Shown in pieces: positions 9,046 through 26,698 of a DNA stretch of 64,000 nt. The first letter of the stretch is position 1. Each line of letters begins with the position of its first letter. The notes under the pieces were generated by a model, which saw only the letters and a program-made list of their open reading frames with translations, was not told where the DNA came from and made no database searches. The translations under genes and the position numbers were made by a program. Source of the DNA: an uncultured Polyangiaceae bacterium (lineage in GTDB: Bacteria > Acidobacteriota > Thermoanaerobaculia > Multivoradales > JAHEKO01); assembly GCA_964195975.1 (NCBI GenBank), contig CAXMQZ010000087.1, positions 747 to 64,746 of the forward strand. The letters run 5' to 3'.

Positions 9046-9105
9046 CCTAGGAGCCCTTCCGAGTAACTCGCGCAGCTATGCGGATTACTCGGAAGGGCTC
9101 CTAGG
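9046..9105. repeat. perfect 21-bp inverted repeat (hairpin) with an 18-nt loop
   Basis: CCTAGGAGCCCTTCCGAGTAA ... TTACTCGGAAGGGCTCCTAGG. Its first 5 nt are the right direct repeat of the IS. Confidence 0.8.
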
Positions 9106-9131
9106 CTAGCGAGCGTGATAACATCTCTGGC

Positions 9132-9698
9132 ATGCCGGAACCTGATTCCGACGTGGGTCTTCTGACGCCTGAACCGCTTGTAGAACCGACCCGAATCCGC
9201 ATCCCCTCCGCGCTCGGCACCCTGGGCGTCGAGCTCACGGGCGACGTGGTGACCCATGTCGTCATCGTCCCAAGAGGAAAAGCACGAAGTCAGTTTCGGG
9301 ATTTCTCAGATCTCAAGAGATCCGAGAGGTCCGATTTCCTGGACGAGGTTCTTGGTAGGTTTTCGGAGTTTTTGGCAGGCGCTAGACGAAGTCTGGGTCT
9401 CGAATACGATCTCAGTGCCACCGGAGTGACCGGTTTTACTCGCCGTGTGTTGAAACAAACCGCCAAGATCCCGTATGGCAAGACCCGAAGCTATCAACAG
9501 ATAGCAGAGGCGGCGGGAAGACCCACTGGCTATCGCCAAGTTCAATCAACCCTGATGGCGAATCCTCTTCCTTTGATTGTTCCCTGTCACCGGGTGGTTC
9601 CTGGAAAAACTGGAATTGGCAGCTTCATAGGCGGCGCCAAGAAAAAGAAATGGCTTCTCAGGCTCGAAGAGCGCACCCTAGCTATCGACGACCTGTAA
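9132..9698 (+). CDS. ogt: methylated-DNA-protein-cysteine methyltransferase (O6-alkylguanine alkyltransferase)
   Basis: Contains the IPYGKTRSYQQIAEAAG region and the PCHRVV active-site motif. Confidence 0.85.
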   Translation: MPEPDSDVGLLTPEPLVEPTRIRIPSALGTLGVELTGDVVTHVVIVPRGKARSQFRDFSDLKRSERSDFLDEVLGRFSEFLAGARRSLGLEYDLSATGVTGFTRRVLKQTAKIPYGKTRSYQQIAEAAGRPTGYRQVQSTLMANPLPLIVPCHRVVPGKTGIGSFIGGAKKKKWLLRLEERTLAIDDL

Positions 9699-10676: not shown

Positions 10677-10684
10677 GGTTTTTC

Positions 10685-12058
10685 CTATCGACCTCGTGGA
10701 CGCGCCACGGCTGCAGGCTCGTCGTCAACAACAGCTACTGTTGCCGTCTTGACAGAAGGAAGAGTCTCGAGCACCTCTGCCGAATCCACTGCCTGACGGA
10801 GTTGATCTCTCCAGGCCGCGAATGCAGGCATTTGATCTGGAGAGATGGGCTCGGCTGGCTTGTTATCGAGATTGAGCGGGTTGATCCACCTGCCATCCTG
10901 CTGAATACGGTAGTCGAGATGGGACGCCGTTGCGAGCCCAGTCGATCCGACATAACCAATAACGTCACCCTGTCGCACTCGTCGGCCAGGTCGAATGCCA
11001 CTGGCGAACCGCGAAAGATGAAGGTAGGCGGTCAAGTATCCATTCGGGTGTCGAACCTTGACGGTCTTTCCTCCGCCACGATCCCAACCCGCAAATCGAA
11101 CTGTTCCACTCCCAGTCACCCGAACCGGTGTGCCGGTAGGCGCTCCGTAGTCCACACCATAATGGGGTCTATAGCGCTTGAGTATCGGATGAAAACGCCG
11201 GCTAGTGAATCCCGAGGTGATTCTCGAGTACCGTAAGGGAGAGCGAAGAAAAAGTTTTCTCAGGGGATTTCCATCAGCGTCGTAGTGCCCACCATCGTCT
11301 CCAAAACGGTAGGCCTCCAAACTTCTATTTTCGTTGACGTAATGCAGTGCCAGAACCTCGCCCACCCTATGGAACTCGCCATCGAGGAAAACCCGCTCGT
11401 AGATGACTTCGAAGGTGTCTCCCAGCCGAAGATCTCGATTGAAGTCGAGGTCCCACTGGAGAACCTCTGCCATTTCGTAGGCCAGGACGATCTCTCCTCC
11501 GGCCTGCCGGATCGAGGTCTCTAGAGCGCCGTGCAAGGATCCTCTGACCATTCGGATCGCCGTCTCCACGAGGAATGGGTGCCAGGTACCTCGCCAACCT
11601 TGATTCTCCCGCGCAACCACAAGATGGCCTTTGCCATCTATGGTCAGGCGTAGTCCTCGCAGCTCAGAGTCGAGATCCACCAAGATCGCATAGCGATCCA
11701 CTGGACGAATCCGTCGAACATTCACATGACGCGCGACCTCAGAGACAAGAGCTTGGGCCTCCTCAGGCTCCAGACCTAACTCATCGACCACGTCGCTGAG
11801 TGTCTCGCCCCGGCGAAAGGAAAACTCGACAGGCAACTCGGAACTCGGGAGCTCATGGTCCGGTCTTGCAGCCCACACGGACGACGCGATGAGATTTTGG
11901 TCGAACTCCAGAGCCCGAACAAGCGGATAGGGCGACTGGGAATACGATTCCAAGTGGTGCGTCATCCAGAGGAGAGCTGAGGCCAGCACCCCAAGGAAGA
12001 TGGGAACGCCCAACCTGAGGATGCGGCGGGTCTGTCTCGTTGTTTTCTTAACAGGCAT
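10685..12058 (-). CDS. M23 family murein endopeptidase (LysM-less, N-terminal TM anchor)
   Basis: C-terminal M23 core: HYGVDYGAPTGTPVRVTGSGTV...GGGKTVKVRHPNGYLTAYLHL...GYVGSTGLATASHLDY. Confidence 0.8.
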   Translation of the reverse strand: MPVKKTTRQTRRILRLGVPIFLGVLASALLWMTHHLESYSQSPYPLVRALEFDQNLIASSVWAARPDHELPSSELPVEFSFRRGETLSDVVDELGLEPEEAQALVSEVARHVNVRRIRPVDRYAILVDLDSELRGLRLTIDGKGHLVVARENQGWRGTWHPFLVETAIRMVRGSLHGALETSIRQAGGEIVLAYEMAEVLQWDLDFNRDLRLGDTFEVIYERVFLDGEFHRVGEVLALHYVNENRSLEAYRFGDDGGHYDADGNPLRKLFLRSPLRYSRITSGFTSRRFHPILKRYRPHYGVDYGAPTGTPVRVTGSGTVRFAGWDRGGGKTVKVRHPNGYLTAYLHLSRFASGIRPGRRVRQGDVIGYVGSTGLATASHLDYRIQQDGRWINPLNLDNKPAEPISPDQMPAFAAWRDQLRQAVDSAEVLETLPSVKTATVAVVDDEPAAVARPRGR

Positions 12059-12160
12059 GCGGGTTTAGCGATCGCCAGCCCGAGATTGAAGGTCGTCTAT
12101 CGCGGGCACTTTACCACAGCCACGAGTCCTATTCTGGGACTGCTGGAACTCGACCCTTGG

Positions 12161-12625
12161 CTAACCCAGCGCCTGTGAGATGACCGCGTCGGAGTCTTTT
12201 GTCAGCCTGCCAGAGAACACGGCGCTTCCGTCTTTGAGAATCAGCAGCCCAGGCAGGTGGGTTACCGAATAGCGCTTGGAAAAGGAGCCGTCTTTGTCGA
12301 GGTAGACGGCCGCCTTGGAGCTCTTGCCTTGGAGAAAGGCCTCGACATCCGATCTGTCCTCTTGAAAGTCGACCATGATCACCTTCGCCTGTTTGCCCCA
12401 CCGGTCATAGATCTGATTGGTCTGATTCACCACGTCTTTGCCTCGCGGGGACCAGGAGGCAAATACAACCACGATAACGGCACCCTTGCTCAGATTCGAC
12501 GCGCCCAACGTGCCACCTCCCAGACCTTCTAGCTGGTACTGCCGAGCCTGGGCCGCAAGTGGCATGACTGAGACTGCTGGAAGTGCCAGCAACAACAAGA
12601 CTGCAAAGGTTTTTCTCATGAGCAC
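12161..12625 (-). CDS. secreted TlpA/redoxin-like thioredoxin-fold protein lacking the CXXC active site
   Basis: It has a signal peptide. The motif VVVFASWSPRGKD replaces the canonical ..WCxxC.. of redoxins. Confidence 0.6.
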   Translation of the reverse strand: MLMRKTFAVLLLLALPAVSVMPLAAQARQYQLEGLGGGTLGASNLSKGAVIVVVFASWSPRGKDVVNQTNQIYDRWGKQAKVIMVDFQEDRSDVEAFLQGKSSKAAVYLDKDGSFSKRYSVTHLPGLLILKDGSAVFSGRLTKDSDAVISQALG

Positions 12626-12630
12626 TGACC

Positions 12631-12867
12631 TCAGAATCCTTCGCGCCTATGCGGAAGGCTGGTGAGAATTCTTCTACGCAGGCTCTCAGGAGCCGGTGTT
12701 TTGGAGCACCCCTTGCGTAACACCATCAACATTCTTTGCGTGTACTTGATTTGGCGAGCACAGTGAGGACAGATCACGAGGTGTTCTCGGAACGAGATCA
12801 GGAGGTCCTCCTCCATTTCATTGTCCGTGAAGAGGAAGATTACTTCTTTGACCCTGGTGCAATTCAT
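12631..12867 (-). CDS. zinc-binding anti-sigma factor (ZAS/RsrA-like)
   Basis: The 78 aa product has an H-x3-C-x2-C motif (EHLVICPHCAR) plus an N-terminal Cys. It lies immediately downstream of the ECF sigma gene. Confidence 0.65.
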   Translation of the reverse strand: MNCTRVKEVIFLFTDNEMEEDLLISFREHLVICPHCARQIKYTQRMLMVLRKGCSKTPAPESLRRRILTSLPHRREGF

Positions 12868-12931
12868 TCGCGGTCCTCGATCGACCTTGGACTCTGGTCG
12901 CCTTGCGGATTCCTCCGAGGCTCCTCTCTAG

Positions 12932-13606
12932 CTAACTACTCGTCTTACGACTATATTCCGCGTCGTCTTTTTTGTTCGAGTTGTTTACCGCCTTGTTTTC
13001 GCCCTTGCTTCTCATCTTGCTGGGCTCGCCTGCCCTCAGGTAGCCATGCTCGCGGGCGTACTCGAGCATTCCGACCTCGAGAAGCTTGCGGCCTCGATAG
13101 AGTCGGCTCATCACAGTCCCAAGCGGTAGCTCCAGAATCTCAGCGATCTCCTTGTACGAGAATCCTTCGAGATCCGCCAGGATGACCGCCATCTTGTAGT
13201 CGGTCGGCAGCCTGTCGAGTGCCTTCTGGACATCCTCGTCAAGAACATTCTCCAGGAGTTCCTCCTCTGGACTCTTTATCTTGCCAGTGGCGTCCTTGCT
13301 GACTTGCGTCTCGAAGGCGTCTTCGATGTCGGCGAAATCGCTTTGTGGTGGGGTTTTCTGCTTCTTTCGGTAATTATTGATAAAGGTGTTTTTGAGAATC
13401 TTGAACAGCCAGGCCTTGAAGTTAGTGCCCTCTTGGAACTTGTCGTAGTAGCGATAGGCCTTGAAATAGGTCTCCTGAACCAGATCCTCGGCATCTTGGG
13501 CATTCCGCGTCATGCGGTAGGCCGTGTTGTAGAGCGAGTCGACAAACGGCATGGCTGCCGCCTCGAAGTCCCATCCTCGTTGCTCACTAGTGGTGCTTTT
13601 GCTCAT
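12932..13606 (-). CDS. ECF-type RNA polymerase sigma-70 factor with Lys-rich C-terminal tail
   Basis: Region 2 (DAEDLVQETYFKAYR..) and region 4 (GFSYKEIAEILELPLGTVMSRLYRGR) are present. There is an unusual roughly 40 aa K/N/S-rich C-terminal extension. Confidence 0.85.
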   Translation of the reverse strand: MSKSTTSEQRGWDFEAAAMPFVDSLYNTAYRMTRNAQDAEDLVQETYFKAYRYYDKFQEGTNFKAWLFKILKNTFINNYRKKQKTPPQSDFADIEDAFETQVSKDATGKIKSPEEELLENVLDEDVQKALDRLPTDYKMAVILADLEGFSYKEIAEILELPLGTVMSRLYRGRKLLEVGMLEYAREHGYLRAGEPSKMRSKGENKAVNNSNKKDDAEYSRKTSS

Positions 13607-13737: not shown

Positions 13738-15207
13738 TCAGAACAGGTTCCAACCAACCGAAATGACGCTACTGCGGGCCAGTTCGACTAGAGAACCTGG
13801 CAGAAGCCCCAACAACACCGTAACAAAAGCGCAGAGCCCCAACGTCGCAACCAGGACGGGTGCTCGCAGCGGCATCGGTGTGGTGTCGTCGGCATCCTTG
13901 AAGTACATCTGCACAACGACACCCATGTAGTAGTAAAGCGAAACTGCACTCGTCAGGACACCGATTACTGCCACCCAGGTCCAACCTGCCTCGACGGCAG
14001 CTGCAAACAGATACACCTTGCCGAAGAACCCACCCGTCGGAGGTATTCCAGTCAGTGCCAGCATGAAGACGAGCATCATGGCCGCTAGGTGTGGTGCTCG
14101 CCGAGCCAACCCCGCATAATCGCTGTAGGTCTCCCCAGCGTATTCCTTGCGCTCGAGCAAGAGTACGATGCCAAAAGCTCCAAGGGTAAAGAAGCTATAC
14201 GCGAACATGTAGAACATGGCGGCCCACAGCCCCATCTCGCTTGCCGCCAGGACACCCAGAAGGACGTAGCCCGCATGCGCGATCGAGCTATAGGCCAGCA
14301 TACGTTTCACGTTGGTCTGAGTCAGTGCTGCGACGTTGCCCCAGATCATCGACAGTCCCGCAACTGCAGCGACGACGACTTGCCACTCCACGACGAGCGG
14401 GCCGAGACCCTGGTAGAGGATTCTGATCAAGATAGCGAAAGAAGCCGCTTTCGAGGCAGTAGCCAGATATGCAGTTACAGGTGTCGGTGCACCGACATAG
14501 ACATCGGGTGTCCACACATGAAATGGAACGGCGGCAATCTTGAAGAAAAGTCCAATCACCAACAAGATCCAGCCTACGGTTGCCAGGAGGTTGCCATTCA
14601 ATGTCGCATTGATCAGACCTCCTGCAAGCTGTTCGAGGTTGAGGGTCCCCGTAGAACCGTAAAGCAACGAAATGCCATACAGCAAGAACCCGCTCGAAAG
14701 GGCTCCCAGAACAAAGTATTTGATTGCCGCTTCGTTCGACCGTGTCTCGCGCTTGAAGTACCCAGCCAGCACATAACTCGACAGCGCCATCAACTCGAGC
14801 GAGATCCAGATCGACAGCAGATTGAAGCCGCTAGCCATGAAAAGCATGCCCGTCGTAGCGAGCAGGATCAACGAGTAGTACTCACCAGCTCGGTACCGAC
14901 CCTCTTCGATGAATCGAACCGATAAGAGGATGGTCAAAGCCGTTGCGATCAGGAACACGAGCTTCCAGAAGAACGCGAAATTGTCGAGGATGAACATCTT
15001 GGCCAGTATCGGAAGACCGTTCGACTGGCCATGCGCCCAAAAAAGCAGACCCGTCGTGACCGCAATGCCAACAAGCGACAAAAAGGCGGTCTTGCGGCTA
15101 TCCAGGCCGCGACCGATAGAGCCTACGACCAACAGCACGAGGGCACAAACCGTGAGAAAGATCTCCGGTGCCAGCAGCAGGAACTCTTGTGGGTCGAAAG
15201 GCAACAT
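13738..15207 (-). CDS. nuoN: NADH-quinone oxidoreductase subunit N
   Basis: The 489 aa polytopic antiporter-like subunit is last in the nuo operon. Confidence 0.85.
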   Translation of the reverse strand: MLPFDPQEFLLLAPEIFLTVCALVLLVVGSIGRGLDSRKTAFLSLVGIAVTTGLLFWAHGQSNGLPILAKMFILDNFAFFWKLVFLIATALTILLSVRFIEEGRYRAGEYYSLILLATTGMLFMASGFNLLSIWISLELMALSSYVLAGYFKRETRSNEAAIKYFVLGALSSGFLLYGISLLYGSTGTLNLEQLAGGLINATLNGNLLATVGWILLVIGLFFKIAAVPFHVWTPDVYVGAPTPVTAYLATASKAASFAILIRILYQGLGPLVVEWQVVVAAVAGLSMIWGNVAALTQTNVKRMLAYSSIAHAGYVLLGVLAASEMGLWAAMFYMFAYSFFTLGAFGIVLLLERKEYAGETYSDYAGLARRAPHLAAMMLVFMLALTGIPPTGGFFGKVYLFAAAVEAGWTWVAVIGVLTSAVSLYYYMGVVVQMYFKDADDTTPMPLRAPVLVATLGLCAFVTVLLGLLPGSLVELARSSVISVGWNLF

Positions 15208-15211: not shown

Positions 15212-16807
15212 CTAGTTCTCTAGCTCCGCAAGCTTTTCCTCTACAACTCTGCCGTCGATTACTGCCAGCCCACCATTCTCGGCCAGGTCTATCTTGGTGA
15301 CCACATAGTCGACCGGCTTTTCCAGAATCTCGAAGAACGGCTTCGGGTAGAGACCGATCCAAAAGCAGAGCACGACAATCGGCACGAGATAGAGCATCTC
15401 CCTTCCGCTCAGGTCCGCGAGCCCCTCGTTCTCCGGGTTGGTGATGTTTCCAAAGAACACTCTTTGATACATCCAGAGCATGTACGCAGCACCGAGAACG
15501 ATCCCGATGACGCCCACCAGCGCCCACCACCAGACTCTATTGAAAGCCCCGACAAGAATGGTGAACTCACCGATAAAGCCATTGAGCACCGGAAGTCCGA
15601 TCGAAGACATCGTGATGATCATGAAAATCGTGGCGAACTTCGGCATGACGCTCGAGATGCCGCCATAGTCGGCGATCATTCTTGTATGTCTGCGTTCGTA
15701 GATCACACCGACCAAAAGGAAGAGAGCGCCGGTGGAAAGACCGTGATTGATCATCTGCAAGATACCGCCGTTCAACCCGGCCGTGTTGAGCGCAAAGACT
15801 CCCAACATCACGAACCCGAGATGGCTGACCGAAGAGTAGGCGACCAACTTCTTCATGTCTTTTTGCGCCATCGCTACCAAGGCTCCATAGATGATTCCGA
15901 TAATGGCGAGTCCAGCCATCCACGGCAGCAGCTGCAGGGTCGCTTCAGGCAGAATCGGTAGCGAGAAGCGCACAAAGCCATAGGTACCCATTTTCAACAA
16001 GACACCAGCCAGAATGACCGACCCTGCTGTCGGTGCCTCGACGTGTGCGTCGGGAAGCCACGTGTGGAATGGAAACATAGGCACCTTGATCGCAAAAGCA
16101 ACAAAGAAAACGAGAAATATCCAGATCTGAAGGTCGAGCGGTATCTCCGCTGAAATCTCATGAAATTGAGGTATGAAGAAGGTGCGTTCGTTTCCGAGCC
16201 CGCCCCAACCCAGAAGACCAGTGCTGTTGTAGAAGTAGAGTGCCAGAATTCCGAGAATCATCAGCACCGAGCCAACCAAGGTGTAGAGAAAAAACTTGAT
16301 AGCTGCATAGAGCCGTCTCGGACCACCCCAAATCCCGATGAGAAAGTACATCGGTACCAGCATCACTTCCCAAAACACATAGAACAGGAAGAAATCCATC
16401 GCCATGAACACGCCAAGCATCCCCGTCTGCAGCAGAAGCATGAAGACGTAGTACTCCTTCTCACGGTTGTCGATCGCGCTCCACGATGAGAGAAAAGCCA
16501 GGACACCCAGCAACGTCGTCAACAGAATCAGCAAAAGCGCAATGCCATCGATGCCGAACTCGTAGCGGGCTCCGAGCGATTCGATCCAACTAGCGCTCTC
16601 TCGAAACTGAAACAGATCTCCATCGCGATCGAAGGCGAACCAGAGTGGCACAGAGATCACGAAATCGAGCGCAGCCACCGCAGTCGCAAAGCGGCGGATC
16701 GACGCCCCATTCCCGCTACGCATGAAAAAGATGACAAATAGCGCCCCCAGCAGTGGCACATAACAGATGATGCTGAGGATCGGTATTCCTTGCAGCCAGT
16801 CAAACAT
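15212..16807 (-). CDS. nuoM: NADH-quinone oxidoreductase subunit M
   Basis: 531 aa antiporter-like subunit of the NuoM/ND4 family. Confidence 0.85.
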   Translation of the reverse strand: MFDWLQGIPILSIICYVPLLGALFVIFFMRSGNGASIRRFATAVAALDFVISVPLWFAFDRDGDLFQFRESASWIESLGARYEFGIDGIALLLILLTTLLGVLAFLSSWSAIDNREKEYYVFMLLLQTGMLGVFMAMDFFLFYVFWEVMLVPMYFLIGIWGGPRRLYAAIKFFLYTLVGSVLMILGILALYFYNSTGLLGWGGLGNERTFFIPQFHEISAEIPLDLQIWIFLVFFVAFAIKVPMFPFHTWLPDAHVEAPTAGSVILAGVLLKMGTYGFVRFSLPILPEATLQLLPWMAGLAIIGIIYGALVAMAQKDMKKLVAYSSVSHLGFVMLGVFALNTAGLNGGILQMINHGLSTGALFLLVGVIYERRHTRMIADYGGISSVMPKFATIFMIITMSSIGLPVLNGFIGEFTILVGAFNRVWWWALVGVIGIVLGAAYMLWMYQRVFFGNITNPENEGLADLSGREMLYLVPIVVLCFWIGLYPKPFFEILEKPVDYVVTKIDLAENGGLAVIDGRVVEEKLAELEN

Positions 16808-16860: not shown

Positions 16861-18933
16861 TCAACCCCTTATTGCGACGACGACGTAGAAAAGCACTAGT
16901 ACGAACATTCCCACGGCCATGACCAGGGCGTACTGAGATACAAGCCCTGTCTGTAGCCTGCGGAAGAACTTCGATCCGGTCTCGAAAATCCACCCCACCA
17001 AATTGACCAGACCGTCCACAACATACTTGTCGAAGAAACCCGAAATATACGCCGACAGCACCGTGAGATTACGGGTGCCCATGACGAGAAACCCATCAAT
17101 AAACCCAGTATCAAATCGGAACAACGCTCTGGCAGAGGCCCACGTACCGCGGACAATGGTCGCGTCGTAAAACTCATCGACCCAATATTTGTTGACCAGG
17201 ACACGATAGACCAGGGGAAATCGCTCCGCCCAGCGTTGGCCTCCAGCAAGCCCCTGGTTTCCACCATAGGTCTTCCAAGCGACGAAAATACCGAAGCCGG
17301 CTACCGCCACCGACAGGGTCATCAGGATCAACTCGACACCCACGCTCAAATGGTGCTCCCCGCCGTGGCCGCCGATCGTCTCGGTGACAGGAGCAAGAAA
17401 GTGTCCAAACCAGTTCCAATCCCAGTGTCCCACGCGCGGGATCCCGATCCATCCCGAGAAAACGGCCCCGATGGCTAAGACGATCAACGGAGTCGTCATC
17501 ACCGAAGGTGACTCGTGTACATGCTCCCACTGCTGCTCGGTGCCACGAAAATCGCCCCAGAAGGTCAAGAAAAGGAGTCGAAACATGTAGCACGCCGTCA
17601 GACCAGCAGTGGTCAAACCAACCAGCCAGAGCCAACGATGACCATCGAAAGCAGCTGTCAAGATCTGGTCTTTGCTGAAGAATCCGGCAAAGCCTGGCAC
17701 ACCGGAAATGGCCAACGTGCCGACAAGAAAGGTCTTGTAGGTGGTGGGCATGACCTTCCGTAACCCACCCATCTTGCGCATGTCCTGCTCGCCGCTCATT
17801 CCATGGATTACCGAGCCGGAACCGAGAAACATCAGACCTTTGAAGAAAGCATGAGTGAACAGATGGAAAATAGCCACGCTGTACGCACCCACGCCCGCAG
17901 CCAAAAACATGTATCCCAGTTGCGACACTGTCGAGTAGGCCAGTACTTTCTTGATGTCTGTCTGCGCCAAACCGATCGTGGCCGCAAAAATCGCCGTTAT
18001 CGCGCCGATCACTGCAACCACCTCTGAGACACTCGGTGCCAATTGATAGATCACATTGGCGCGAACTACCATGTAAACACCGGCGGTCACCATGGTCGCA
18101 GCGTGGATCAAGGCCGATACCGGTGTCGGGCCCGCCATCGCATCGGGCAACCACACATAGAGGGGAATCTGAGCGCTTTTGCCCATTGCGCCGATAAACA
18201 AACTGATTGCCACAAAGGCAGCCACACTCAGACCGAGAACCAGCGTGGTTTCTACCACGGCCGGATCGACGGCTATCCTGTCGAAGATCTTGCGATAGTT
18301 GAGGGTGCCAAAGGTCGTGGCCAGCGCAAACAGTCCCATGAGAAAACCAGCGTCGCCTATCCTGTTGACAATAAACGCTTTGCGGCCAGCATACGGTGGA
18401 AACTCTTCGGTAAACCAGAATCCGATCAAGAGATACGAACAGAGCCCCACACCCTCCCAACCGACAAACAACACCAGGAAGTTGTTGCCGAGAATGAGCA
18501 GCAACATCGCACCCATGAAGAGATTCATATAGACAAAGAACCGCTGAAAACTCGCATCTTGACTCATGTATCCGATCGAGTAGACATGAATCCAGAAGCC
18601 GACGAAGGTCACCATGAATAGCATCACCGCTGACAGCGGATCCAACAGAAACCCGACCTCGACTTCGAAATTGGATACCGATCCGTCACTCAGAGCGAGC
18701 GGCCCTGCAGGAACCCATAGATACAAAATCTGCTCGAAGGGCTCGTGTGCCGCATACTCAGGGCTCGCCATATAGCCGGCGATGGCTCCGATTCCAATCA
18801 AACAGGAGAGCCCGACGGTGCCACAAGCGATAATCGCCACCGCCTTCTTCGGAATCCTCTTCCACAACACAACGCCGTTGAGTAAAGAACCCAGAAGGGG
18901 AAGCAGCGGCACGATCCAGAGCAACTGTTTCAT
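16861..18933 (-). CDS. nuoL: NADH-quinone oxidoreductase subunit L
   Basis: The 690 aa product is of NuoL/ND5 length with a long C-terminal amphipathic helix region. Confidence 0.85.
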   Translation of the reverse strand: MKQLLWIVPLLPLLGSLLNGVVLWKRIPKKAVAIIACGTVGLSCLIGIGAIAGYMASPEYAAHEPFEQILYLWVPAGPLALSDGSVSNFEVEVGFLLDPLSAVMLFMVTFVGFWIHVYSIGYMSQDASFQRFFVYMNLFMGAMLLLILGNNFLVLFVGWEGVGLCSYLLIGFWFTEEFPPYAGRKAFIVNRIGDAGFLMGLFALATTFGTLNYRKIFDRIAVDPAVVETTLVLGLSVAAFVAISLFIGAMGKSAQIPLYVWLPDAMAGPTPVSALIHAATMVTAGVYMVVRANVIYQLAPSVSEVVAVIGAITAIFAATIGLAQTDIKKVLAYSTVSQLGYMFLAAGVGAYSVAIFHLFTHAFFKGLMFLGSGSVIHGMSGEQDMRKMGGLRKVMPTTYKTFLVGTLAISGVPGFAGFFSKDQILTAAFDGHRWLWLVGLTTAGLTACYMFRLLFLTFWGDFRGTEQQWEHVHESPSVMTTPLIVLAIGAVFSGWIGIPRVGHWDWNWFGHFLAPVTETIGGHGGEHHLSVGVELILMTLSVAVAGFGIFVAWKTYGGNQGLAGGQRWAERFPLVYRVLVNKYWVDEFYDATIVRGTWASARALFRFDTGFIDGFLVMGTRNLTVLSAYISGFFDKYVVDGLVNLVGWIFETGSKFFRRLQTGLVSQYALVMAVGMFVLVLFYVVVAIRG

Positions 18934-18936: not shown

Positions 18937-19242
18937 CTAACCCCTAAGCTCCGTAGCCTGCTCCAAATCGATGCTCGAATGAAGTCGATAAAAGGCAACC
19001 AGGATCCCCAAACCGACTGCGGCCTCGCCAGCGGCCACCGCGATCGTAAACACGGCCATGACTTGGCCTGTCAAATCAGACATCTGATACGAGAACGCCA
19101 CCAGATTCAAATTCACAGAATTCAAGACCAGCTCGATACTCATGAGAACGATGATCATGTTTCTCCGTGTGACGATCCCGACAAGACCGATCACAAAGAG
19201 GATGCCGCTCAGCACCAGATAGTGAGTAGTCGCAATCTCCAC
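18937..19242 (-). CDS. nuoK: NADH-quinone oxidoreductase subunit K
   Basis: The 101 aa product has 3 TM helices and the motif ...LMSIELVLNSVNLNLVAFS.... Confidence 0.9.
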   Translation of the reverse strand: MEIATTHYLVLSGILFVIGLVGIVTRRNMIIVLMSIELVLNSVNLNLVAFSYQMSDLTGQVMAVFTIAVAAGEAAVGLGILVAFYRLHSSIDLEQATELRG

Positions 19243-19246: not shown

Positions 19247-19780
19247 TCACTCCTTCCTCGCCAGAACTACAGCACCGATCATCGCCACGAGCAGAAAAAT
19301 GGAAGCGATCTCGAACGGCAGCAGATATTCCCGGTAAAGATGCCAGCCGACGGCCTCGGAATTTCCCAACGCCTCACCATCGACATCTACGAGCTGCTCA
19401 GGGTATGGATTGGGTGGCCCAAACGAGACGCTCATGACGACAACCACGATCAGACCGATTAGAAGAATCGCCAAAATCACCGCCATCGGCCACTGGACAC
19501 CGAAAAGTCGCATCTCCTTCAACTTGTGAAGATTGACCAACATGATCACGAACAAAAACAGCACCATGATTCCGCCGCCATAGACAAAAACCTGAACCAC
19601 AGCAATAAATTCGGCATGTCGTAGCAAGAACAGAGCAGCCATGCTCAAGAAACAGACCAGAAGCGAAATCGCCGAGTACATCGGGTTGCGCATCGTGATC
19701 ACCGCAATAGCGGAACCGACCGTGATTACCGCGAACAGGTAAAAAAGCACTGCTGTGCCGTTGGCGACTAGAAAATCCAT
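19247..19780 (-). CDS. nuoJ: NADH-quinone oxidoreductase subunit J
   Basis: The 177 aa product resembles ND6 or NuoJ (..MYSAISLLVCFLSMAALFLL..). Confidence 0.85.
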   Translation of the reverse strand: MDFLVANGTAVLFYLFAVITVGSAIAVITMRNPMYSAISLLVCFLSMAALFLLRHAEFIAVVQVFVYGGGIMVLFLFVIMLVNLHKLKEMRLFGVQWPMAVILAILLIGLIVVVVMSVSFGPPNPYPEQLVDVDGEALGNSEAVGWHLYREYLLPFEIASIFLLVAMIGAVVLARKE

Positions 19781-19843: not shown

Positions 19844-20326
19844 CTACTTCTCAATCTCACGATCGGTGTACTCTGGTCTGACTTTCCATTCTTGCAATTC
19901 AGCCATATCGATGTAGAGGTTCTCCCACCGCTCGTAGCTGGCCAGTTCATATGTCTTGGTAGTCAACCAGATCGATTTTGGGTTGGTCGGACAGGCCTCT
20001 TCGCAAAGACCGCAGAACATACAACGTTGGAGGTCAATGTCGAATCGATCCAGCAGCTTTTCCTTCTTCTCCGTCTCGGGATTCACTTCTTGGTGCCAAT
20101 CAATGTAGATGATGTCGATCGGGCAGTCCCTGGCGCAAAGAGTGCACTTGATGCAGCGATCCTCGTCGAGGCGGAACATCCCGCGGAACCGGTGCGACGG
20201 CTCCATCCTTTCCTCCGGATACTGCACGGTGACTTTCTTCTTGAATATGTACTTGAAAGTTATTCCGAGACCGGCGAACAGGTCGAGCAACATGATTCGA
20301 TCGAGAAATCTCTTAGTCGAAGTCAT
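19844..20326 (-). CDS. nuoI: NADH-quinone oxidoreductase subunit I (2x[4Fe-4S] ferredoxin)
   Basis: Two CxxCxxCxxxCP motifs are present: CIKCTLCARDCP and CMFCGLCEEACP. Confidence 0.9.
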   Translation of the reverse strand: MTSTKRFLDRIMLLDLFAGLGITFKYIFKKKVTVQYPEERMEPSHRFRGMFRLDEDRCIKCTLCARDCPIDIIYIDWHQEVNPETEKKEKLLDRFDIDLQRCMFCGLCEEACPTNPKSIWLTTKTYELASYERWENLYIDMAELQEWKVRPEYTDREIEK

Positions 20327-20332: not shown

Positions 20333-21427
20333 TCACCCAAAAAGAATCTTCGCCAATCCGGTGCCTACTACCGCGATCAGCGATGTCGGAATCAGCCATT
20401 TCCAGCCGAGATCCATTAGTTGATCAAATCGATAGCGAGGAAAGGTTCCCCGAAACCAGATAAATGTGAATAAGAACACAACCAGCTTCAGCGTAAACCA
20501 GACAAGACCCGCAAGACCCACTGGAAGAAAACCAAGATCGAGAAAAGAAAGTACCTCGACGTTCGGAAACGGCCTCGACCACCCACCCAGAAAGAGAGTT
20601 ACCCCGATCGCTGAGACCACGATCATGTTGGCGTACTCGCCCAGAAAAAAGAGCGCAAACCGCATACCGCTGTACTCGGTATGAAAACCAGCGACCAGCT
20701 CTGACTCTGCCTCGGGAAGATCAAACGGGTTCCGATTCGACTCTGCAACACCCGCTACGAAATAGACAAAGAAGGCCAGGAACCCAAACGGAAAGAACCC
20801 GAATGCGAACCAACGTCCCTGCTCCAGCTGAGACATGACGATTCCATTCAGCGACATCGTTCCGGCCATCAATAGGGGTACGACCAGAGAGAATCCCTGA
20901 GGCACCTCGTACGAGATCATCTGTGCCGCCGACCTCAACCCACCAAGCAACGAAAATTTGCTGTTGGATGACCACCCACCGAGAATGATTCCGTAAACGC
21001 TTATGGTCGCCATGGCGATAACGAACAGCAAACCCACATTCACATCGGTGATAAACCAATTGGCGCCACCTGTGGTCGCCGACGAAGGACCGAAGGGAAC
21101 TACCGCAAAAATCACCAGGGCCGGACCCACCACCAGACAGGGCGCCAACACAAAAGCCCATCGCACCGCTCGATCCGGAATGGAGTCCTCTTTGACCAGT
21201 AACTTCGCCACATCGGCGATGGGTTGCAGAACCCCCCATGGGCCGACCCGGTTTGGACCGGTGCGGACTTGGAGAAAACCCAGAATCTTGCGTTCGGCAA
21301 GGGTCAGATAGGCGATCAATCCGAGAACGACCGCCATCACAAGTGCGATCTTGAGGGCGGGTTGGATCGTGTAGTCGAACAGGAAAGGACCAGCCGCCTC
21401 TCTCAACCCACTGAGAAGCTCTGCCAT
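20333..21427 (-). CDS. nuoH: NADH-quinone oxidoreductase subunit H
   Basis: The 364 aa product resembles ND1 or NuoH (..RTGPNRVGPWGVLQPIADV.., ..NRNPFDLPEAESELVAG..). Confidence 0.9.
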   Translation of the reverse strand: MAELLSGLREAAGPFLFDYTIQPALKIALVMAVVLGLIAYLTLAERKILGFLQVRTGPNRVGPWGVLQPIADVAKLLVKEDSIPDRAVRWAFVLAPCLVVGPALVIFAVVPFGPSSATTGGANWFITDVNVGLLFVIAMATISVYGIILGGWSSNSKFSLLGGLRSAAQMISYEVPQGFSLVVPLLMAGTMSLNGIVMSQLEQGRWFAFGFFPFGFLAFFVYFVAGVAESNRNPFDLPEAESELVAGFHTEYSGMRFALFFLGEYANMIVVSAIGVTLFLGGWSRPFPNVEVLSFLDLGFLPVGLAGLVWFTLKLVVFLFTFIWFRGTFPRYRFDQLMDLGWKWLIPTSLIAVVGTGLAKILFG

Positions 21428-22569
21428 CAGCGATCTACCTCACCCAAGACGATGTCGGTCGTACCGATCACCGCTATGAGATCCGCCAACAGGTCACCCC
21501 GAATCATCTCTGGAAGGACCTGCAGGTTGAGAAATGATGGAGGGCGGACCCGGCAGCGATAGGGATTGGGCGATCCATCCCCAATGATGTAGAAACCGAT
21601 CTCGCCCTTGGGTCCTTCGACTCCGTAATAGACCTCACCCTCTTTGGGAGCCTTCAGGACTCGAGGTTTCTTGGCCATGATCGGCCCATCCGGTAGCTGG
21701 TCGAGACACTGACGAAGAATCCTTACCGACTGCCTCATCTCTTCCATCCTGACCAGATACCGATCGTAGGTGTCGCAGTTGAAAAAGACCGGAACATCGA
21801 ACTCGACTTCCGAGTAGGCTTCATAGGGTCGAGCCTTGCGCAAGTCCCAGTCGATTCCGCTGCCACGGAGCATCGGTCCCGTGACGCCATAGTCCAGTGC
21901 CACATCGGGGTCGAGAACTCCGACTCCGACCGTTCGTTTCTTCCAAATCCGATTGTTGGTCAGGAGGCCCTCGTACTCGGCGATATTCTCCGGAAAGCTC
22001 TCGATGAATTCGGCGCACTTCTCGGTCCACCCCACCGGCAGATCGAAGGGTTGCCCGCCGGGGCGCATGCAATTGAGGGTCAGTCGCGCGCCGCAGTAGT
22101 CCTCGAACAGATCGAGCACGTGTTCGCGTTCCCGAAAGGTGTAGAAAAAAGGAGTCATGGCGCCAATGTCGATGGCGTGCGTTGCCAACCAGAGCAAGTG
22201 ACTCGAGATCCTCTGCAGCTCGGCCAGAATAGTGCGTATGTAGCGAGCCCGAGGCGGCACAATAATTCCAATAAGCTTCTCCACGGCTCCGACGTAGGCC
22301 AGATTGTTCGTGGCAGCAGCAACGTAGTCCATCCGGTCGGTATGGGGCACATTCTGAAAGAAGGGATGGAGCTCGAATAGCTTCTCCGTGCCTCGATGCA
22401 AATACCCGATAATCGGATAGCAATCGACGATTCGTTCACCGTCGAGCTTCACTTTTAGCCTCAAAACACCGTGAGTAGCAGGGTGTTGCGGCCCGAAATT
22501 GAGCTCCATTTCCTCGACCCCAAGCAGGGTCTCGGACGGCTGTGGAGCGGTGGTTTCGATGTCGGTCAT
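21427..22569 (-). CDS. nuoD: NADH-quinone oxidoreductase subunit D
   Basis: The 380 aa product is 49 kDa-subunit-like (..FGPQHPATHGVLRL.., C-terminal ..GEVDR). Confidence 0.9.
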   Translation of the reverse strand: MTDIETTAPQPSETLLGVEEMELNFGPQHPATHGVLRLKVKLDGERIVDCYPIIGYLHRGTEKLFELHPFFQNVPHTDRMDYVAAATNNLAYVGAVEKLIGIIVPPRARYIRTILAELQRISSHLLWLATHAIDIGAMTPFFYTFREREHVLDLFEDYCGARLTLNCMRPGGQPFDLPVGWTEKCAEFIESFPENIAEYEGLLTNNRIWKKRTVGVGVLDPDVALDYGVTGPMLRGSGIDWDLRKARPYEAYSEVEFDVPVFFNCDTYDRYLVRMEEMRQSVRILRQCLDQLPDGPIMAKKPRVLKAPKEGEVYYGVEGPKGEIGFYIIGDGSPNPYRCRVRPPSFLNLQVLPEMIRGDLLADLIAVIGTTDIVLGEVDR

Positions 22570-22615: not shown

Positions 22616-23395
22616 TCAACTCTCCTCACCAGAGGATTCCGGGGCGGATTGCGATGTTTTCTCTTCGGGCGGCGCAGGTGGCCTCCAGCCAGTCCCTGTC
22701 CCCGCAACTGGGCCAGCATTGTCGGTGTAGGTCTCTGGATAGATGGCAGCCCCGGTATCGATACCCTCGACCGGAAAATCCTTCAGCAACGGATGGCCGT
22801 TGAATCCCTCCCAGAGAAGAATTCGCGTCATGTCTGGATGATCGGTAAAGCGGATCCCATACATGTCGTAGGTCTCCCGCTCGGCCCAGTTGGCACCCGC
22901 GTAAACCTTAGCTACCGACGGAACCTCGACTCCTACGTCGACTCTTACCTTCAATCGAACCTGATCGTTGGTCTCCAGGTTGTGAAGAATGTAAACGACT
23001 TCCAACTCTTTTTCTTCTCGGTTGTCGAAATGTGCACCGCAACTATCGACAAAGAGCTTGTAACCGTGCTCCTCTTTCAAGCTCCTGCAAACTTCGCGGA
23101 TCGACTGGCTATCGATCTCGAGGACCAGATCTCCAGCGAAACTTCGGGCCGAAAGAACTGCGTCGGCATGCGCTGCCCTCAATGAATCGACCAGGAGGCT
23201 ATCTTCGACCTCTTCCCAGCTTGGTGTCGACGGGTCTCTCTCCCACGGCTCCTTTGCCGCCTCGGCTTCTGCCAGAGCCTTCGCTTTAGCAGCCTTGGCC
23301 TTCGCTGCCGCTTCTTCCTTGGCCTTGGCCTCGGCTTCTGCGGAATCCGTTGGCGGGGTTTCGTCTAGGGGCTTGCCGTTATCGGAATCGGTCAT
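22616..23395 (-). CDS. nuoC: NADH-quinone oxidoreductase subunit C with Ala/Lys/Glu-rich N-terminal extension and Pro/Ser/Glu C-terminal tail
   Basis: The core 30 kDa-subunit motif is ..ETYDMYGIRFTDHPDMTRILL... A roughly 55 aa low-complexity N-terminal extension reads AEAEAKAKEEAAAKAKAAKAKA. Confidence 0.85.
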   Translation of the reverse strand: MTDSDNGKPLDETPPTDSAEAEAKAKEEAAAKAKAAKAKALAEAEAAKEPWERDPSTPSWEEVEDSLLVDSLRAAHADAVLSARSFAGDLVLEIDSQSIREVCRSLKEEHGYKLFVDSCGAHFDNREEKELEVVYILHNLETNDQVRLKVRVDVGVEVPSVAKVYAGANWAERETYDMYGIRFTDHPDMTRILLWEGFNGHPLLKDFPVEGIDTGAAIYPETYTDNAGPVAGTGTGWRPPAPPEEKTSQSAPESSGEES

Positions 23396-23398: not shown

Positions 23399-23902
23399 TC
23401 AGCTCGGGCTCATCGGGCCCTGGTCGTCGAGATTGGATACCGACATGCGATCGATCCTGCGCTGGAGATGCATCAAACCCCACAACAGAGCCTCGGGTCT
23501 TGGAGGACACCCGGGGACATAGACCGATACCGGAATGACTCTGTCGACACCCTGGGTCACCGCATAGGTCCGATAGGGTCCTCCACAAGTGGCACACGCA
23601 CCCATCGCCAGAGCCCACTTGGGCTCCGGCATTTGATCCCACAACCGCTTCACAATCGGTGCCATCTTTTCAGTGACCGTTCCAGCAACAATCATCAGAT
23701 CGCACTGTCGGGGAGTCCCGCGCATGACCTCGGCACCAAACCTCGACATGTCGTGGCGAGGATCGAGCACAGCCATCATCTCGATGGCACAACAGGCCAA
23801 CCCGAACTGCATCGGCCAGATTGCGGATCGTCGAGCCCAATTGAAAATCTTGTCGTAGGTGGTGGTGAGGACGTTAGCCTCGACGTTATCCATCAGGCCC
23901 AA
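23399..23902 (-). CDS. nuoB: NADH-quinone oxidoreductase subunit B
   Basis: Contains [13 protein letters not shown]...[10 protein letters not shown]...[11 protein letters not shown], the conserved N2-cluster cysteines. Confidence 0.9.
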
Positions 23903-24249
23903 TTCAACGCCCCCCTATTCCACACGTAGATGTATCCAACAACCAGAATTGCCAGAAAAATCATCATCTCGATAAAGCCAAAAAGCGCCAACTTGTCGAG
24001 CAACACTGCCCATGGAAACAAGAAAATCGTCTCCACATCGAAAACAACAAACAGAACCGCGATCAGGTAGTAGCGAATAGCGAAAGGCTGATCGTGCGCA
24101 AACGTTTCGGGCTCATTGCCACATTCGTAGGGCTCGCTATTGGTCAATCCCCTGCCGCCGTGACGAAACAGCTTCGCCGCCATGAGAGTGACGAAGAGAA
24201 ACAAAATAACAATGACAATAAAGACGAGAATCGGAATATAGCCAGCCAC
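23893..24249 (-). CDS. nuoA: NADH-quinone oxidoreductase subunit A
   Basis: The 118 aa product has 3 TM helices (..YECGNEP....[18 protein letters not shown]..). Confidence 0.9.
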
Positions 24250-24500
24250 AGAAATCTCCGGTCGGGACTTCGGCCCGTAGCTCTCGGATTATCTTACCTG
24301 GAATGAAACGTAGAAAACGGTTGCATGGCCGTAGGGGACATCGCTACGTGCAAGAGTCGGAATGATCTCGACAACCTGACCCTGCGTCAGTTCAGTTGAC
24401 TCCGCAGCCCTACTCCGTCCTCCCGGGGGTAACCATATCCCACTTGATTTCAATCGCTCCTTCAACGATCGATTTTGCGTGTCTTCCAAGCTAAGCGAGG

Positions 24501-25571
24501 CTATTGTATAGGAGGGTGGGGGCCTGTCAAGGCGACCTCGAATAAGGAATCAGGAGCCACTCCTTTGCTCTGAACGAGCACTCGAATCTCGTCCCCCATG
24601 CCGCCCGGATCCAGCAGGGTCATGGCGTCGACCCTGTCCTGTTGGGAGACCTGGTCCAGCCCTTCGAAGATCCCACATGAAACCAACCATGACGCTTGAC
24701 GGGTCAGGGCAATGGTTTCGAGCCCAACCCGTTCTCCCTCCTCCCGAAGAGTCGTGAAGTCGATATGGGCCGAAAGATCCTGACCTCCCACATCGACCAG
24801 AGCGTTTCGATGCACCTGCTGACTCCGGTAGCAGGCCAGTGTACCCTCCATCCTGATCCGAGGATCCAGAAGTCTCTGTCGCTCGAAACCATAGTCGCAA
24901 GTAACCAGAATTCCACGATCCAGGCTCGATGCGAGACGACCATAAAGAGGACGCCAGTCAACCGAGAGATCGGCCACCTGCCCCGGACTCAGCTCAGTCT
25001 CCATTTCGCACCACATGGCCATGAGATCGGGACTCGACAGCTCTTTCTGGCAATACGAGAAAGTGCCTTCGTCTACGTCGACCCATAGCTCTCCAACTTC
25101 CCCGCCTTCGAGGCCGACAAGGCGGTGGACTGGCAGAGCATCGAAAAGCTCGTAGGAGAAAATCATCCCGCTCACGCCCTCCAAAAGCAGGCTGCCCAAA
25201 TCATCGAGCTGTTCGACCCCCACCGGGACACGCCTCGCTATCCTGTCCCATCCCATCAGCCGGCGCTCTGAAACGTGGTCGAGCGCGCCGACCAGGTGAC
25301 CCAGGTGGATCGCCGCCCCATAACCCGCTTCGAGATAGTCGGCCCTCACACCAAGGGCCCCATCCAACCGCTCCAGCAGTCGTGCTGTCGTACGTCCAAA
25401 AAGAGGCGACAGAGATGAGCCGGTGACAAAATCGCCCTCTTTTCCGATAGGAAGATCCTCGTGAGCGTAGTACCCACCATCTCCATACAGAGCCTCCTCC
25501 ATGAACTCCGAAAATGGAATCGGACCATTCTCAACGATCCGTGCTCGGAGTCGATCGGCGGGAAACGACAT
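24501..25571 (-). CDS. MidA/NDUFAF7-family SAM-dependent methyltransferase (COG1565, DUF185)
   Basis: Contains GPIPFSEFMEEALYGDGGYY...GDFVTGSSLSPLFG. The start was chosen at the internal Met MSFPADRL. The longer ORF reaching 25667 would overlap the divergent kinase gene by 19 bp. Confidence 0.7.
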   Translation of the reverse strand: MSFPADRLRARIVENGPIPFSEFMEEALYGDGGYYAHEDLPIGKEGDFVTGSSLSPLFGRTTARLLERLDGALGVRADYLEAGYGAAIHLGHLVGALDHVSERRLMGWDRIARRVPVGVEQLDDLGSLLLEGVSGMIFSYELFDALPVHRLVGLEGGEVGELWVDVDEGTFSYCQKELSSPDLMAMWCEMETELSPGQVADLSVDWRPLYGRLASSLDRGILVTCDYGFERQRLLDPRIRMEGTLACYRSQQVHRNALVDVGGQDLSAHIDFTTLREEGERVGLETIALTRQASWLVSCGIFEGLDQVSQQDRVDAMTLLDPGGMGDEIRVLVQSKGVAPDSLFEVALTGPHPPIQ

Positions 25572-25648
25572 AACAAGTCGGAGTTTACCGACCCTCTCAA
25601 GCCCGAGGCCCACAAGCGGCCTTTCCCGCGTGCTAAGATCCGCCGCAA

Positions 25649-26698
25649 ATGACTGACCCACCGTCACTTCCGACGACCGACAGGTTGCTCGAGATCATCG
25701 ATCTGATGGCCGGACAGCCGATCCTGATGCTGGTGGATCTGGTCCTCGATCGCTTTATCACCGGTAGACCGAAACGGATCAGCCGCGAGGCCCCGGTACT
25801 GATCTTGACCCACGAGAGCGAAGACATGACTCCCGGAGGGGGTGCCAACGCGGTCGCAAACATCGTGGCGTTGGACGGCGTACCGCTGCCCCTGGGTGTG
25901 GTGGGTGACGACGAGAGCGGCGGGCAGCTACTCGAGATCCTGCGCCGCTCCCGAGTCGACACCGCCGGCATCATCGAGCGGCGGGGTTTTCGCACCCCTA
26001 CCAAAACCAGAATTCTCGGTGGCGGCCATCACTCGATCAAACAGCAGATCGTGCGCTACGACATCGAGGACAAAATCGAGCTCACTCAGACCGAGATACA
26101 GCAGCTCGAAAAACAGATCGAGTGCTGGGACACCGAGGCTACAGTTGCGGTCTTGAGCGATTATGGGTACGGTGCGGTCTCTCCTTCCTTCTTGACCAGG
26201 ATGCGACAAGCCCTTGGAACCGACGGCACGGTGTTGTGTGACAGTCGCTACCGGCTCGGCGATTTCGCCGGTCTCGACGGGGCAACACCCAACGAGGAGG
26301 AAGCTCAAAGCCTCCTTGGTTCGCCGATCTCCGAAACCGAGGACCAGTTGCTGTCGGCGGGATCGAGTCTTGTCGATACTCTGTCTGCTCGCTTCTTGCT
26401 GATCACCCGAGGTAGCTATGGGATGAGCCTGTTCGACGACGGTTATTGCTGCCAGATTCCGGTTCATGGTACCGATGAAGTAGCGGATGTCACCGGCGCG
26501 GGCGACACCGTCATCGGTACGTTCGGATTGGCGCTGGCGTCAGGCGCGAGCGCCCTAGAGGCAGCTTTGCTCGCCAACTACGCTGGTGGAGTGGTGGTCA
26601 TGAAGCGGGGAACCGCAACTCTCGATCGCCAAGAATTGAGCGAAGCCGTGAGCTCCGACCGACGTCCACTCGAGGAGTCGAAATGGGCGAAGCTTTAG
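25649..26698 (+). CDS. D-glycero-beta-D-manno-heptose-7-phosphate kinase (HldE domain I / RfaE1-type, PfkB family)
   Basis: PfkB-kinase motifs are present: ..GGGANAVANI.. and C-terminal DVTGAGDTVIGTF. Confidence 0.8.
   Translation: MTDPPSLPTTDRLLEIIDLMAGQPILMLVDLVLDRFITGRPKRISREAPVLILTHESEDMTPGGGANAVANIVALDGVPLPLGVVGDDESGGQLLEILRRSRVDTAGIIERRGFRTPTKTRILGGGHHSIKQQIVRYDIEDKIELTQTEIQQLEKQIECWDTEATVAVLSDYGYGAVSPSFLTRMRQALGTDGTVLCDSRYRLGDFAGLDGATPNEEEAQSLLGSPISETEDQLLSAGSSLVDTLSARFLLITRGSYGMSLFDDGYCCQIPVHGTDEVADVTGAGDTVIGTFGLALASGASALEAALLANYAGGVVVMKRGTATLDRQELSEAVSSDRRPLEESKWAKL

Follow-up and report, generated by a model that had tools for sequence, protein, structure and literature searches.

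A MidA/NDUFAF7-family methyltransferase gene upstream of an 11-gene complex I operon in Thermoanaerobaculia, and the linkage of its homologs to complex I genes in other lineages

We found that an uncultured bacterium of the Thermoanaerobaculia (Acidobacteriota) encodes, upstream of an 11-gene complex I (nuo) operon and on the same strand, a MidA-family protein that very probably serves complex I in the way its relative in mitochondria does. The DNA analyzed is a stretch of 64,000 nucleotides (assembly GCA_964195975.1, contig CAXMQZ010000087.1, positions 747 to 64,746), hereafter the window, and the gene in question, which we call midA, occupies positions 24501..25571 of its minus strand and encodes a 356-residue methyltransferase, dependent on S-adenosylmethionine (SAM), of the MidA/NDUFAF7/COG1565 family (PF02636). 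By analogy with the characterized members of that family, we consider it likely, though well short of certain, that the product is an arginine methyltransferase that dimethylates Arg59 of NuoD and acts in the maturation of the 11-subunit complex I whose genes follow downstream. The family, the predicted fold, the SAM signature, the target arginine and a linkage to nuo genes that spans phyla and is strongest for NuoD/NdhH were all seen directly in our analysis.

The precedents for such an activity come from mitochondria and from alpha-proteobacteria. NDUFAF7 dimethylates Arg85 of NDUFS2 (PMC3829151), and the same modification is present in Nqo4 of Paracoccus denitrificans, the site being a threonine in Thermus (PMC3750175). 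A conserved bacterial role, with the alpha-proteobacterial homologs as the makers of the modification, was proposed by Shahul Hameed et al. (2018), as cited in PMC9006661, and an NDUFAF7 gene (K18164/PF02636) beside an 11-subunit nuo operon was mentioned in passing for Ca. Actinomarina (Actinomarinales) (bioRxiv 10.1101/2021.02.01.429150). For a methyltransferase of the R. capsulatus nuo cluster, “urf7”, the published case consists of docking and STRING only (PMC9036352). As the link itself had already been proposed for alpha-proteobacteria, at least as PMC9006661 relays it, and the adjacency had been mentioned once for the Actinomarinales, our reading of the window is a well-supported annotation and no surprise. 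What is new relative to the searchable literature is the breadth of the linkage outside the proteobacteria and, above all, the pairing of midA with ndhH in cyanobacteria. Our searches of that literature returned nothing relevant on a link between NDUFAF7 and cyanobacteria, on dimethyl-arginine in NdhH or on NDUFAF7 gene order, and a search for COG1565/DUF185 gave mostly unrelated DUF185x names.

An initial annotation of the window, made from the DNA letters alone, had placed the protein in COG1565, and hidden Markov model searches, profile comparison with solved structures and the predicted fold all bore out its place in the COG1565/DUF185/Methyltransf_28 family. The match to Pfam PF02636 (Methyltransf_28) has an E-value of 1.4e-28 and 100.5 bits, the cut-off being 23.3 bits; NCBIfam has no model for the methyltransferase. 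A public protein that is 100% identical carries the name “SAM-dependent MidA family methyltransferase”, given by JGI, and the nearest named relatives, at 55-61% identity, are from Thermoanaerobaculia (Acidobacteriota), within a family of 6,096 representatives at 50% clustering (E <= 1e-3). When a profile of 40 diverse relatives was compared with the Protein Data Bank, it matched COG1565 of Burkholderia (4f3n, 7.8e-91), the DUF185 protein of R. palustris (1zkd, 1.9e-63) and MidA of Dictyostelium (5ztz, 8.6e-57), whereas the single window sequence gave weaker matches to the same three (1.1e-25, 2.5e-9 and 7.9e-6, respectively). The AlphaFold (AF2) model of the window protein (predicted local distance difference test, pLDDT, 94.6; predicted template modeling score, pTM, 0.93) has a class I methyltransferase core with the additions specific to MidA, as judged with Foldseek, where the template modeling (TM) scores were 0.83 for Burkholderia 4g67, 0.75 for Dictyostelium MidA 5zu0 and 0.72 for R. 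palustris 1zkd; the next fold scored 0.35, and nothing else, whether other folds or other methyltransferases, exceeded 0.41.

The likeness to the characterized proteins has clear bounds. With human NDUFAF7 and MidA of Dictyostelium discoideum (5ZTZ/5ZU0/5ZZW), the window protein shares PF02636, the predicted fold (TM 0.75), the N-terminal motifs and the SAM-binding signature, and the proposed substrate, NuoD, is a homolog of NDUFS2 that keeps the arginine of HRGTEK. It differs from them in its low identity (~19%), its length (356 residues vs ~400-440), the absence of a targeting peptide and the absence of ~17 residues after strand beta2; moreover, it would serve an 11-subunit enzyme without the NADH-oxidizing module. 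The closest solved structure is COG1565 of Burkholderia thailandensis (4F3N/4G67), a protein of uncharacterized function which represents the same broad bacterial branch as the window protein. The alpha-proteobacterial homologs of NDUFAF7 (R. palustris 1ZKD), together with the dimethyl-arginine of Paracoccus denitrificans Nqo4, supply the bacterial precedent (PMC3750175; the proposal relayed in PMC9006661), although they form another branch of the family (18% identity) and belong with a 14-subunit enzyme, unlike the 11-subunit enzyme of the window. In Ca. Actinomarina, by contrast, the pairing is with the same 11-subunit nuoABCDHIJKLMN; there the NDUFAF7 gene follows nuoN, whereas in the window it precedes nuoA, and that organism belongs to the Actinobacteria and was described in a preprint that holds no comparative test of the pairing. 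Judged by its sequence, then, the window protein is a member of the broad bacterial branch of the family, and not demonstrably of the alpha-proteobacterial/mitochondrial NDUFAF7 branch.

All 16 family-invariant residues are present in the window protein, as are the four family motifs GPIxFxxFMxxALY, GDFxT, (S/A)(N/Y)E(L/F)xDA(L/F)P and QD(L/I)T(A/S)HV(D/N)F (residues 16-29, 46-51, 139-147 and 264-272, respectively). The first two include the motifs that the initial annotation had cited, GPIPFSEFMEEALY and GDFVTG, and both were found in the 356-residue open reading frame: the former lies at 25485..25526 (-), with G16, F20, F23, L28 and Y29 nearly invariant in the family alignment, and the latter at 25419..25436 (-), with D47 and T50 invariant and G46 nearly so. 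The third motif reads SYELFDALP in the window protein (25131..25157, minus strand; family consensus SNELFDALP) and was one of two peptide patterns used for finding relatives; around it F138, Y140, E141, D144 and A145 are invariant in the clade. SAM-binding motif I, consensus E-x-G-x-G-x-G in the family alignment, is represented by E81-A-G83-Y-G85-A-A87 (25311..25331, minus strand), where E81 and G85 are found in all 121 clade members and G83 in 117/121; position 87 is glycine in 113/121 and alanine in eight, among them the window protein. The residue that follows strand beta2, D109 in the window protein, is acidic (D or E) in 120/121. The SAM-binding signature is thus retained at the level of sequence, and binding of SAM is predicted.

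The initial annotation took the position of the gene next to nuoA to support a conserved functional link in bacteria, and genomic recurrence supports that claim: other genomes show the adjacency too. In the Thermoanaerobaculia, the class of the window, 11 of 13 evaluable contexts have nuoA downstream of midA in the same orientation, and at least six other lineages have the pairing as well. The gap between the two genes is 18-272 bp in seven of the 11 contexts (18 bp in L089, about 180 bp in L011, 183 bp in L090, about 220 bp in L013, about 240 bp in L002, 251 bp in the window and 271 bp in L088) and 1-7 kb in the other four (1.1 kb in L010, 2.1 kb in L004, 5.0 kb in L005 and 7.0 kb in L012), where it is filled with toxin-antitoxin genes of the PIN/MazE type and with mobile, DUF885 and similar variable genes. 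In L088 and L090, where insertions separate rfaE1 from midA, the midA-nuoA junction is nonetheless intact and tight. In the contig of L008, the 5 kb of available downstream sequence contain no nuo gene.

Does midA simply adjoin nuo in this class by shared ancestry, while its role in the cell is an unrelated one? The promoter-like element that nuo has of its own, the variable genes inserted between midA and nuoA in several relatives, the one relative without nuo genes within 10 kb and the fact that most loci in other phyla are unlinked could all be read in this way. What speaks against such passive synteny is what we found in the other phyla, in a survey of one genome per species that covered 80 loci, 73 of them outside the clade, and whose species-level sample lies outside the alpha-proteobacteria; the flanks were searched by tblastn with the Nuo proteins of the window. 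NuoD/NdhH was found within 10 kb of the MidA homolog at 15 of the 73 loci, and genes of complex I lie beside the MidA homolog in six further lineages with differing layouts. In five Nitrospirota, whose operons we infer to be of the 14-subunit type from a 5-kb gap between nuoD and nuoH that is roomy enough for nuoEFG, midA precedes nuoA by 176-216 bp in the same orientation, and it likewise lies upstream of nuoA in two Chloroflexia. In one Verrucomicrobia and one Handelsmanbacteria genome midA and nuoA are head-to-head, ~150-250 bp apart (L035 8840-10404 and L052 9540-10951, respectively), while in a Terriglobia genome (L059 8702-13197) midA is inside the operon on the same strand, between nuoB and nuoC (nuoA 8702-9070, nuoB 9081-9650, midA 9959-11002, nuoC 11202-12011 and nuoD 12079-13197). 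The proteins of L035 and L052 are shorter (~316 residues), and their alignment to the Pfam profile is confined to its C-terminal part, as is that of the window protein.

In six of the 12 cyanobacteria sampled, the MidA-family gene is on the same strand as a stand-alone ndhH. Either gene may come first, and three of the six have gaps of 81-320 bp (the loci being L048 2553-4940, L063 8763-11089, L058 8526-11074, L073 7476-11116, L020 7444-11053 and L085 2163-11137), and in the cyanobacteria ndhH is the only complex I gene near midA. The neighbors pass the NCBIfam equivalog cut-off for NdhH (775-833 bits vs 583), and the linked methyltransferases match PF02636, in most cases over its full length. 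The pairing indicates the NDUFS2 homolog as the partner of the MidA-family protein and predicts a hitherto unreported arginine modification of NdhH in the photosynthetic NDH-1. At one of these loci (L073 7488-9990, Chroococcidiopsidaceae) two tandem ndhH-like N-terminal segments, ~1.3 kb apart, lie directly upstream of the MidA-family gene, which suggests that this genome carries duplicated copies of ndhH.

As an internal control, every open reading frame of the window of at least 120 residues served as a query on the same set of loci. Near the MidA homologs from outside the clade, none but nuo genes recurred (NuoD at 15/73 loci, NuoB at 10/73, NuoH and NuoJ at 8/73 each), while rfaE1, rfaE2 and the heptosyltransferase gene were found at 0/73 and the pilB-like neighbor did not recur beside MidA homologs outside the clade either. 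The commonest match other than nuo was the gene for a sigma factor of the extracytoplasmic function (ECF) type, at four unrelated loci; ECF sigma factors are a large paralogous family, and these matches are probably paralog noise. In an unbiased clustering of all open reading frames within 5 kb of the MidA homolog at the 73 loci, NuoD ranked first (13 loci), with NuoA and NuoB at 10 each; the clustering also gave one artefact, a reverse-strand open reading frame that spans nuo genes (12 loci), and generic or lineage-restricted neighbors ranked after NuoA and NuoB. Given a chance background of 3%, which we regard as generous, the binomial probability of at least 15 of 73 is 4e-9, and that of at least six of ~20 lineages is 2e-5, the background and the lineage count both being our own estimates. 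Furthermore, a neighbor-joining tree of the MidA proteins follows taxonomy and thus scatters the linked cases over separate clades. For this reason, and because the layouts differ, we also disfavor horizontal co-transfer of a midA-nuo block as the source of the recurrence. The linkage recurs in at least six other lineages with differing gene orders and orientations (binomial 4e-9 to 2e-5), while the rfaE1, rfaE2, heptosyltransferase and pilB-like neighbors never recur outside the clade, which means that passive synteny is already disfavored by the present data, and we consider it highly improbable.

Elsewhere in the survey the MidA homologs have other neighbors. At beta- and gamma-proteobacterial loci the recurrent neighbors are genes which we take, from the starts of their sequences only, to be tsaD, plsY and folK, and not nuo; a folK-like neighbor is found also at the two Chloroflexia loci with nuo linkage (the loci concerned being L038, L053, L056, L069 and L086, and also L072 and L080). 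MidA-family genes are present, too, in Methanoperedens archaea (L041 2508-3518 and L055 10001-11050), with no fpo gene within the flanks that were fetched. These archaea use the Fpo complex, which has a NuoD homolog, FpoD.

If the window protein is tied to complex I, which residue would it modify? The codon for Arg59 of NuoD, CGA, lies at 22393..22395 (-) within GYLH-R-GTEK, and by alignment of this motif Arg59 would occupy the position of the symmetrically dimethylated Arg85 (mature numbering) of bovine and human NDUFS2 and of R121 of Yarrowia. By our own count, we take mature R85 of human NDUFS2 to be R118 of the precursor, the arginine of HRGTEK. Two published residues agree with this assignment, namely the threonine of Thermus at the site (PMC3750175) and R121 of Yarrowia (PMC8042128). 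The arginine is kept in all 23 MidA-linked NuoD/NdhH genes among the loci.

Which subunit the enzyme would act on, which residue it would modify, what kind of methylation it would carry out and how this would affect assembly are carried over from the work on NDUFAF7/MidA (PMC3829151), the presence of the modification in Paracoccus (PMC3750175) and the bacterial proposal as relayed in PMC9006661. On that analogy, the enzyme would bind newly made NuoD and symmetrically dimethylate Arg59 in the loop GYLH-R-GTEK, either before or during the docking of NuoD onto NuoB, and would thereby help the N2/quinone-site module to form. In the assembled complex this loop would pack against cluster N2 of NuoB, where the dimethyl-arginine may favor or stabilize the docking of NuoD with NuoB and the environment of N2 and the quinone site, as demonstrated for NDUFAF7 and NDUFS2 in mitochondria. 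A variant of this scheme keeps the tie to complex I and assumes either that another residue or subunit is methylated (e.g., in NuoB or NuoC) or that the protein is mainly a chaperone that binds NuoD, with methylation secondary or absent. Gene neighborhood does link midA to nuo genes without naming a residue, and the shortened Rossmann region of the clade, the glycine-to-alanine change in motif I of the window protein and its low identity to the characterized MidA would fit such a variant. Still, the partner found most often is NuoD/NdhH, whose gene is the sole complex I gene nearby in cyanobacteria, and this points to the NuoD/NdhH subunit; the strong conservation of the catalytic-site signatures across the 121 clade members, in turn, argues for an active enzyme. 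We therefore regard the variant as unlikely, while giving it enough weight to keep it in view beside the dimethylation of NuoD Arg59.

Could the protein act on another class of substrate altogether, such as DNA, at adenine or cytosine, or other proteins, and so affect gene expression? When MidA of Wolbachia was expressed in E. coli, methylation of both bases in DNA was reported (PMC12455994), and the fold of the family amounts to a class I methyltransferase core of the generic kind. Yet the protein of Wolbachia is one of the alpha-proteobacterial branch, and the reported result is compatible with methylation of proteins; in addition, no restriction or DNA-modification partner adjoins midA within the window, and complex I genes are the sole neighbors that recur across phyla. 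We give this explanation little credence and prefer methylation of NuoD.

Several of our observations nevertheless weigh against NuoD dimethylation by the window protein. Its alignment to PF02636 spans only profile positions 91-245 of 249, i.e., the C-terminal 60% of the profile, because a segment of ~17 residues, present after Rossmann strand beta2 in other members of the family, is missing throughout the Thermoanaerobaculia clade. Alone, its sequence reaches MidA at an E-value of only 7.9e-6; its identity to the characterized MidA of Dictyostelium and to 1zkd is 18-19%, as against 26-27% to the uncharacterized COG1565 protein of Burkholderia; and the third glycine of motif I is replaced by alanine. 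On the genomic side, no nuo gene was within reach at 58 of the 73 loci outside the clade, nor within 10 kb of midA on the 5.9-Mb contig of L087, and nuo has a promoter-like element of its own and is separated from midA by the 251-bp spacer, so that membership of the two in one operon would be no more than a possibility. E. coli has the arginine of HRG in unmethylated form (PMC8042128), so the presence of the arginine is necessary and not diagnostic. Lastly, what supports this putative role for the bacterial branch is genomic evidence. As a separate structural observation, the site of the missing segment is at 25220-25270 of the window (residues ~100-118), where in the model a loop joins beta2 (105-108) to beta3 (119-122).

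The initial annotation had given the feature as 23893-25571. That no gene lies between the methyltransferase gene and nuoA stands, but the interval is not one gene: its 1679 nt are no multiple of 3, and they contain nuoA (23893-24249), a non-coding spacer of 251 bp (24250..24500, minus strand; the putative nuo leader) and midA (24501-25571), so that we rejected its reading as a single gene. The open reading frame of midA begins with the ATG at 25571 and ends with the stop TAG at 24503-24501, and there is no translational coupling between midA and nuoA. A longer form that starts with the GTG at 25667 (388 residues) was rejected as well, since it overlaps the divergent rfaE1-like gene (25649-26698, plus strand) and the starts of the homologs coincide with the ATG at 25571.

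Is midA transcribed together with nuo? A sigma-70-like promoter candidate, TTGACA-16-TACAAT (11/12 matches), lies at 24503..24530 (-), where it overlaps the last codons and the stop of midA, and would give nuo a leader of ~245 nt. The element recurs unchanged in L002 and in similar form in L013, and the relatives with inserted genes have a conserved TTGACAC-N17-TAGAAT ~60-70 nt before nuoA. From these elements, the nuo genes probably have their own sigma-70-type promoter, which in the window overlaps the midA stop codon. Read-through from midA into nuo is possible as well, because the spacer contains no terminator on the minus strand. We found no sign of a regulatory RNA in the 251-bp spacer, for which Rfam gave no match at E <= 1, and its RNA folding was no better than that of shuffled sequences (z = -1.37). 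The midA gene itself is probably transcribed from the 77-bp divergent region that it has in common with the rfaE1-like kinase gene (25572..25648), presumed from the gene coordinates to hold its promoter. True co-transcription of midA with nuo does exist in some lineages, on the basis of the 18-bp gap of L089 and the position of midA inside the operon in Terriglobia.

The initial annotation had nuoABCDHIJKLMN following the methyltransferase gene in the same orientation, and Pfam confirmed all eleven genes on the minus strand: nuoA (23893..24249; 118 residues, GTG start after GGAG; PF00507, E 9.3e-33), nuoB for the N2 cluster subunit (23399..23902; PF01058, E 5.2e-27), nuoC (22616..23395; PF00329, E 4.7e-39, residues 93-211 only), nuoD (21427..22569; PF00346, E 1.9e-104), nuoH (20333..21427; PF00146, E 1.7e-123), nuoI (19844..20326; Fer4 dicluster families), nuoJ (19247..19780; PF00499), nuoK (18937..19242; PF00420), nuoL (16861..18933; PF00361 and PF00662), nuoM (15212..16807; PF00361) and nuoN (13738..15207; PF00361). 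NuoD, the NDUFS2 homolog and putative substrate, passes the equivalog cut-off of NCBIfam TIGR01962 (522 bits vs 459). The locus has no nuoE, nuoF or nuoG between nuoD and nuoH, a statement that covers the window, the rest of the genome being out of view; the stop of nuoD and the start of nuoH overlap at 21427, which leaves nuoEFG no space, and the operon is one of 11 subunits. The NuoC protein of the window (22616-23395, minus strand) has a ~90-residue N-terminal extension rich in Ala, Lys and Glu and a C-terminal tail rich in Pro, Glu and Ser, both outside the Pfam domain, and the called length of NuoC varies widely among the relatives (170-351 residues). Beyond the 3′ end of nuoN (12161-13606, minus strand) are the gene for an ECF-type sigma factor (12932-13606) and a thioredoxin/AhpC-like gene whose product has a signal-like N-terminus (12161-12625).

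Upstream of midA and divergent from it, Pfam identified, in order, genes for a PfkB-family kinase, a cytidylyltransferase-like protein, a family-9 glycosyltransferase (heptosyltransferase) and a pilB-like ATPase, of which the first three would, from their Pfam families, be genes for heptose and the lipopolysaccharide core. In the Thermoanaerobaculia relatives both the rfaE1-midA and the midA-nuoA junctions are hot spots for variable genes (L004 9044-11104, L005 9081-14075, L012 11059-18102, L087 11676-20039 and L088 7213-9991), which include PIN/MazE/PhD toxin-antitoxin pairs, an MmeI-like fragment, DUF885 genes, genes for helix-turn-helix regulators, and cupin and DinB genes.

A broader question raised by our observations is whether the maturation of complex-I-type enzymes has long included, across phyla, arginine methylation of the MidA type on their NuoD-family subunit, which would make this an ancient step and not a proteobacterial invention. 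We put this forward tentatively, with the chances close to even and if anything a little below. If it is true, the step would cover Acidobacteriota, Nitrospirota, Chloroflexota, Verrucomicrobiota, Actinobacteria, the cyanobacterial photosynthetic NDH-1 (NdhH) and possibly the archaeal Fpo of Methanoperedens; a dimethyl-arginine beside N2 would then be the rule in bacterial complex I, and E. coli and Thermus, which provided the classical structural models, would be the outliers. The comparative pattern in any case questions a purely proteobacterial origin of arginine methylation in the NuoD family. These considerations matter beyond the Thermoanaerobaculia, for NDUFAF7 is a disease-relevant assembly factor and the dimethyl-arginine, 3-4 Å from cluster N2, has a mechanistic role that is unsettled. 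Bacteria with physical linkage between the methyltransferase gene and nuoD or ndhH, cyanobacteria being the obvious choice, would offer simple and tractable models for the potential of N2, the integrity of the quinone site and assembly, and E. coli, in which the arginine of NuoCD is naturally unmethylated, may serve as a co-expression host for models of the modification.

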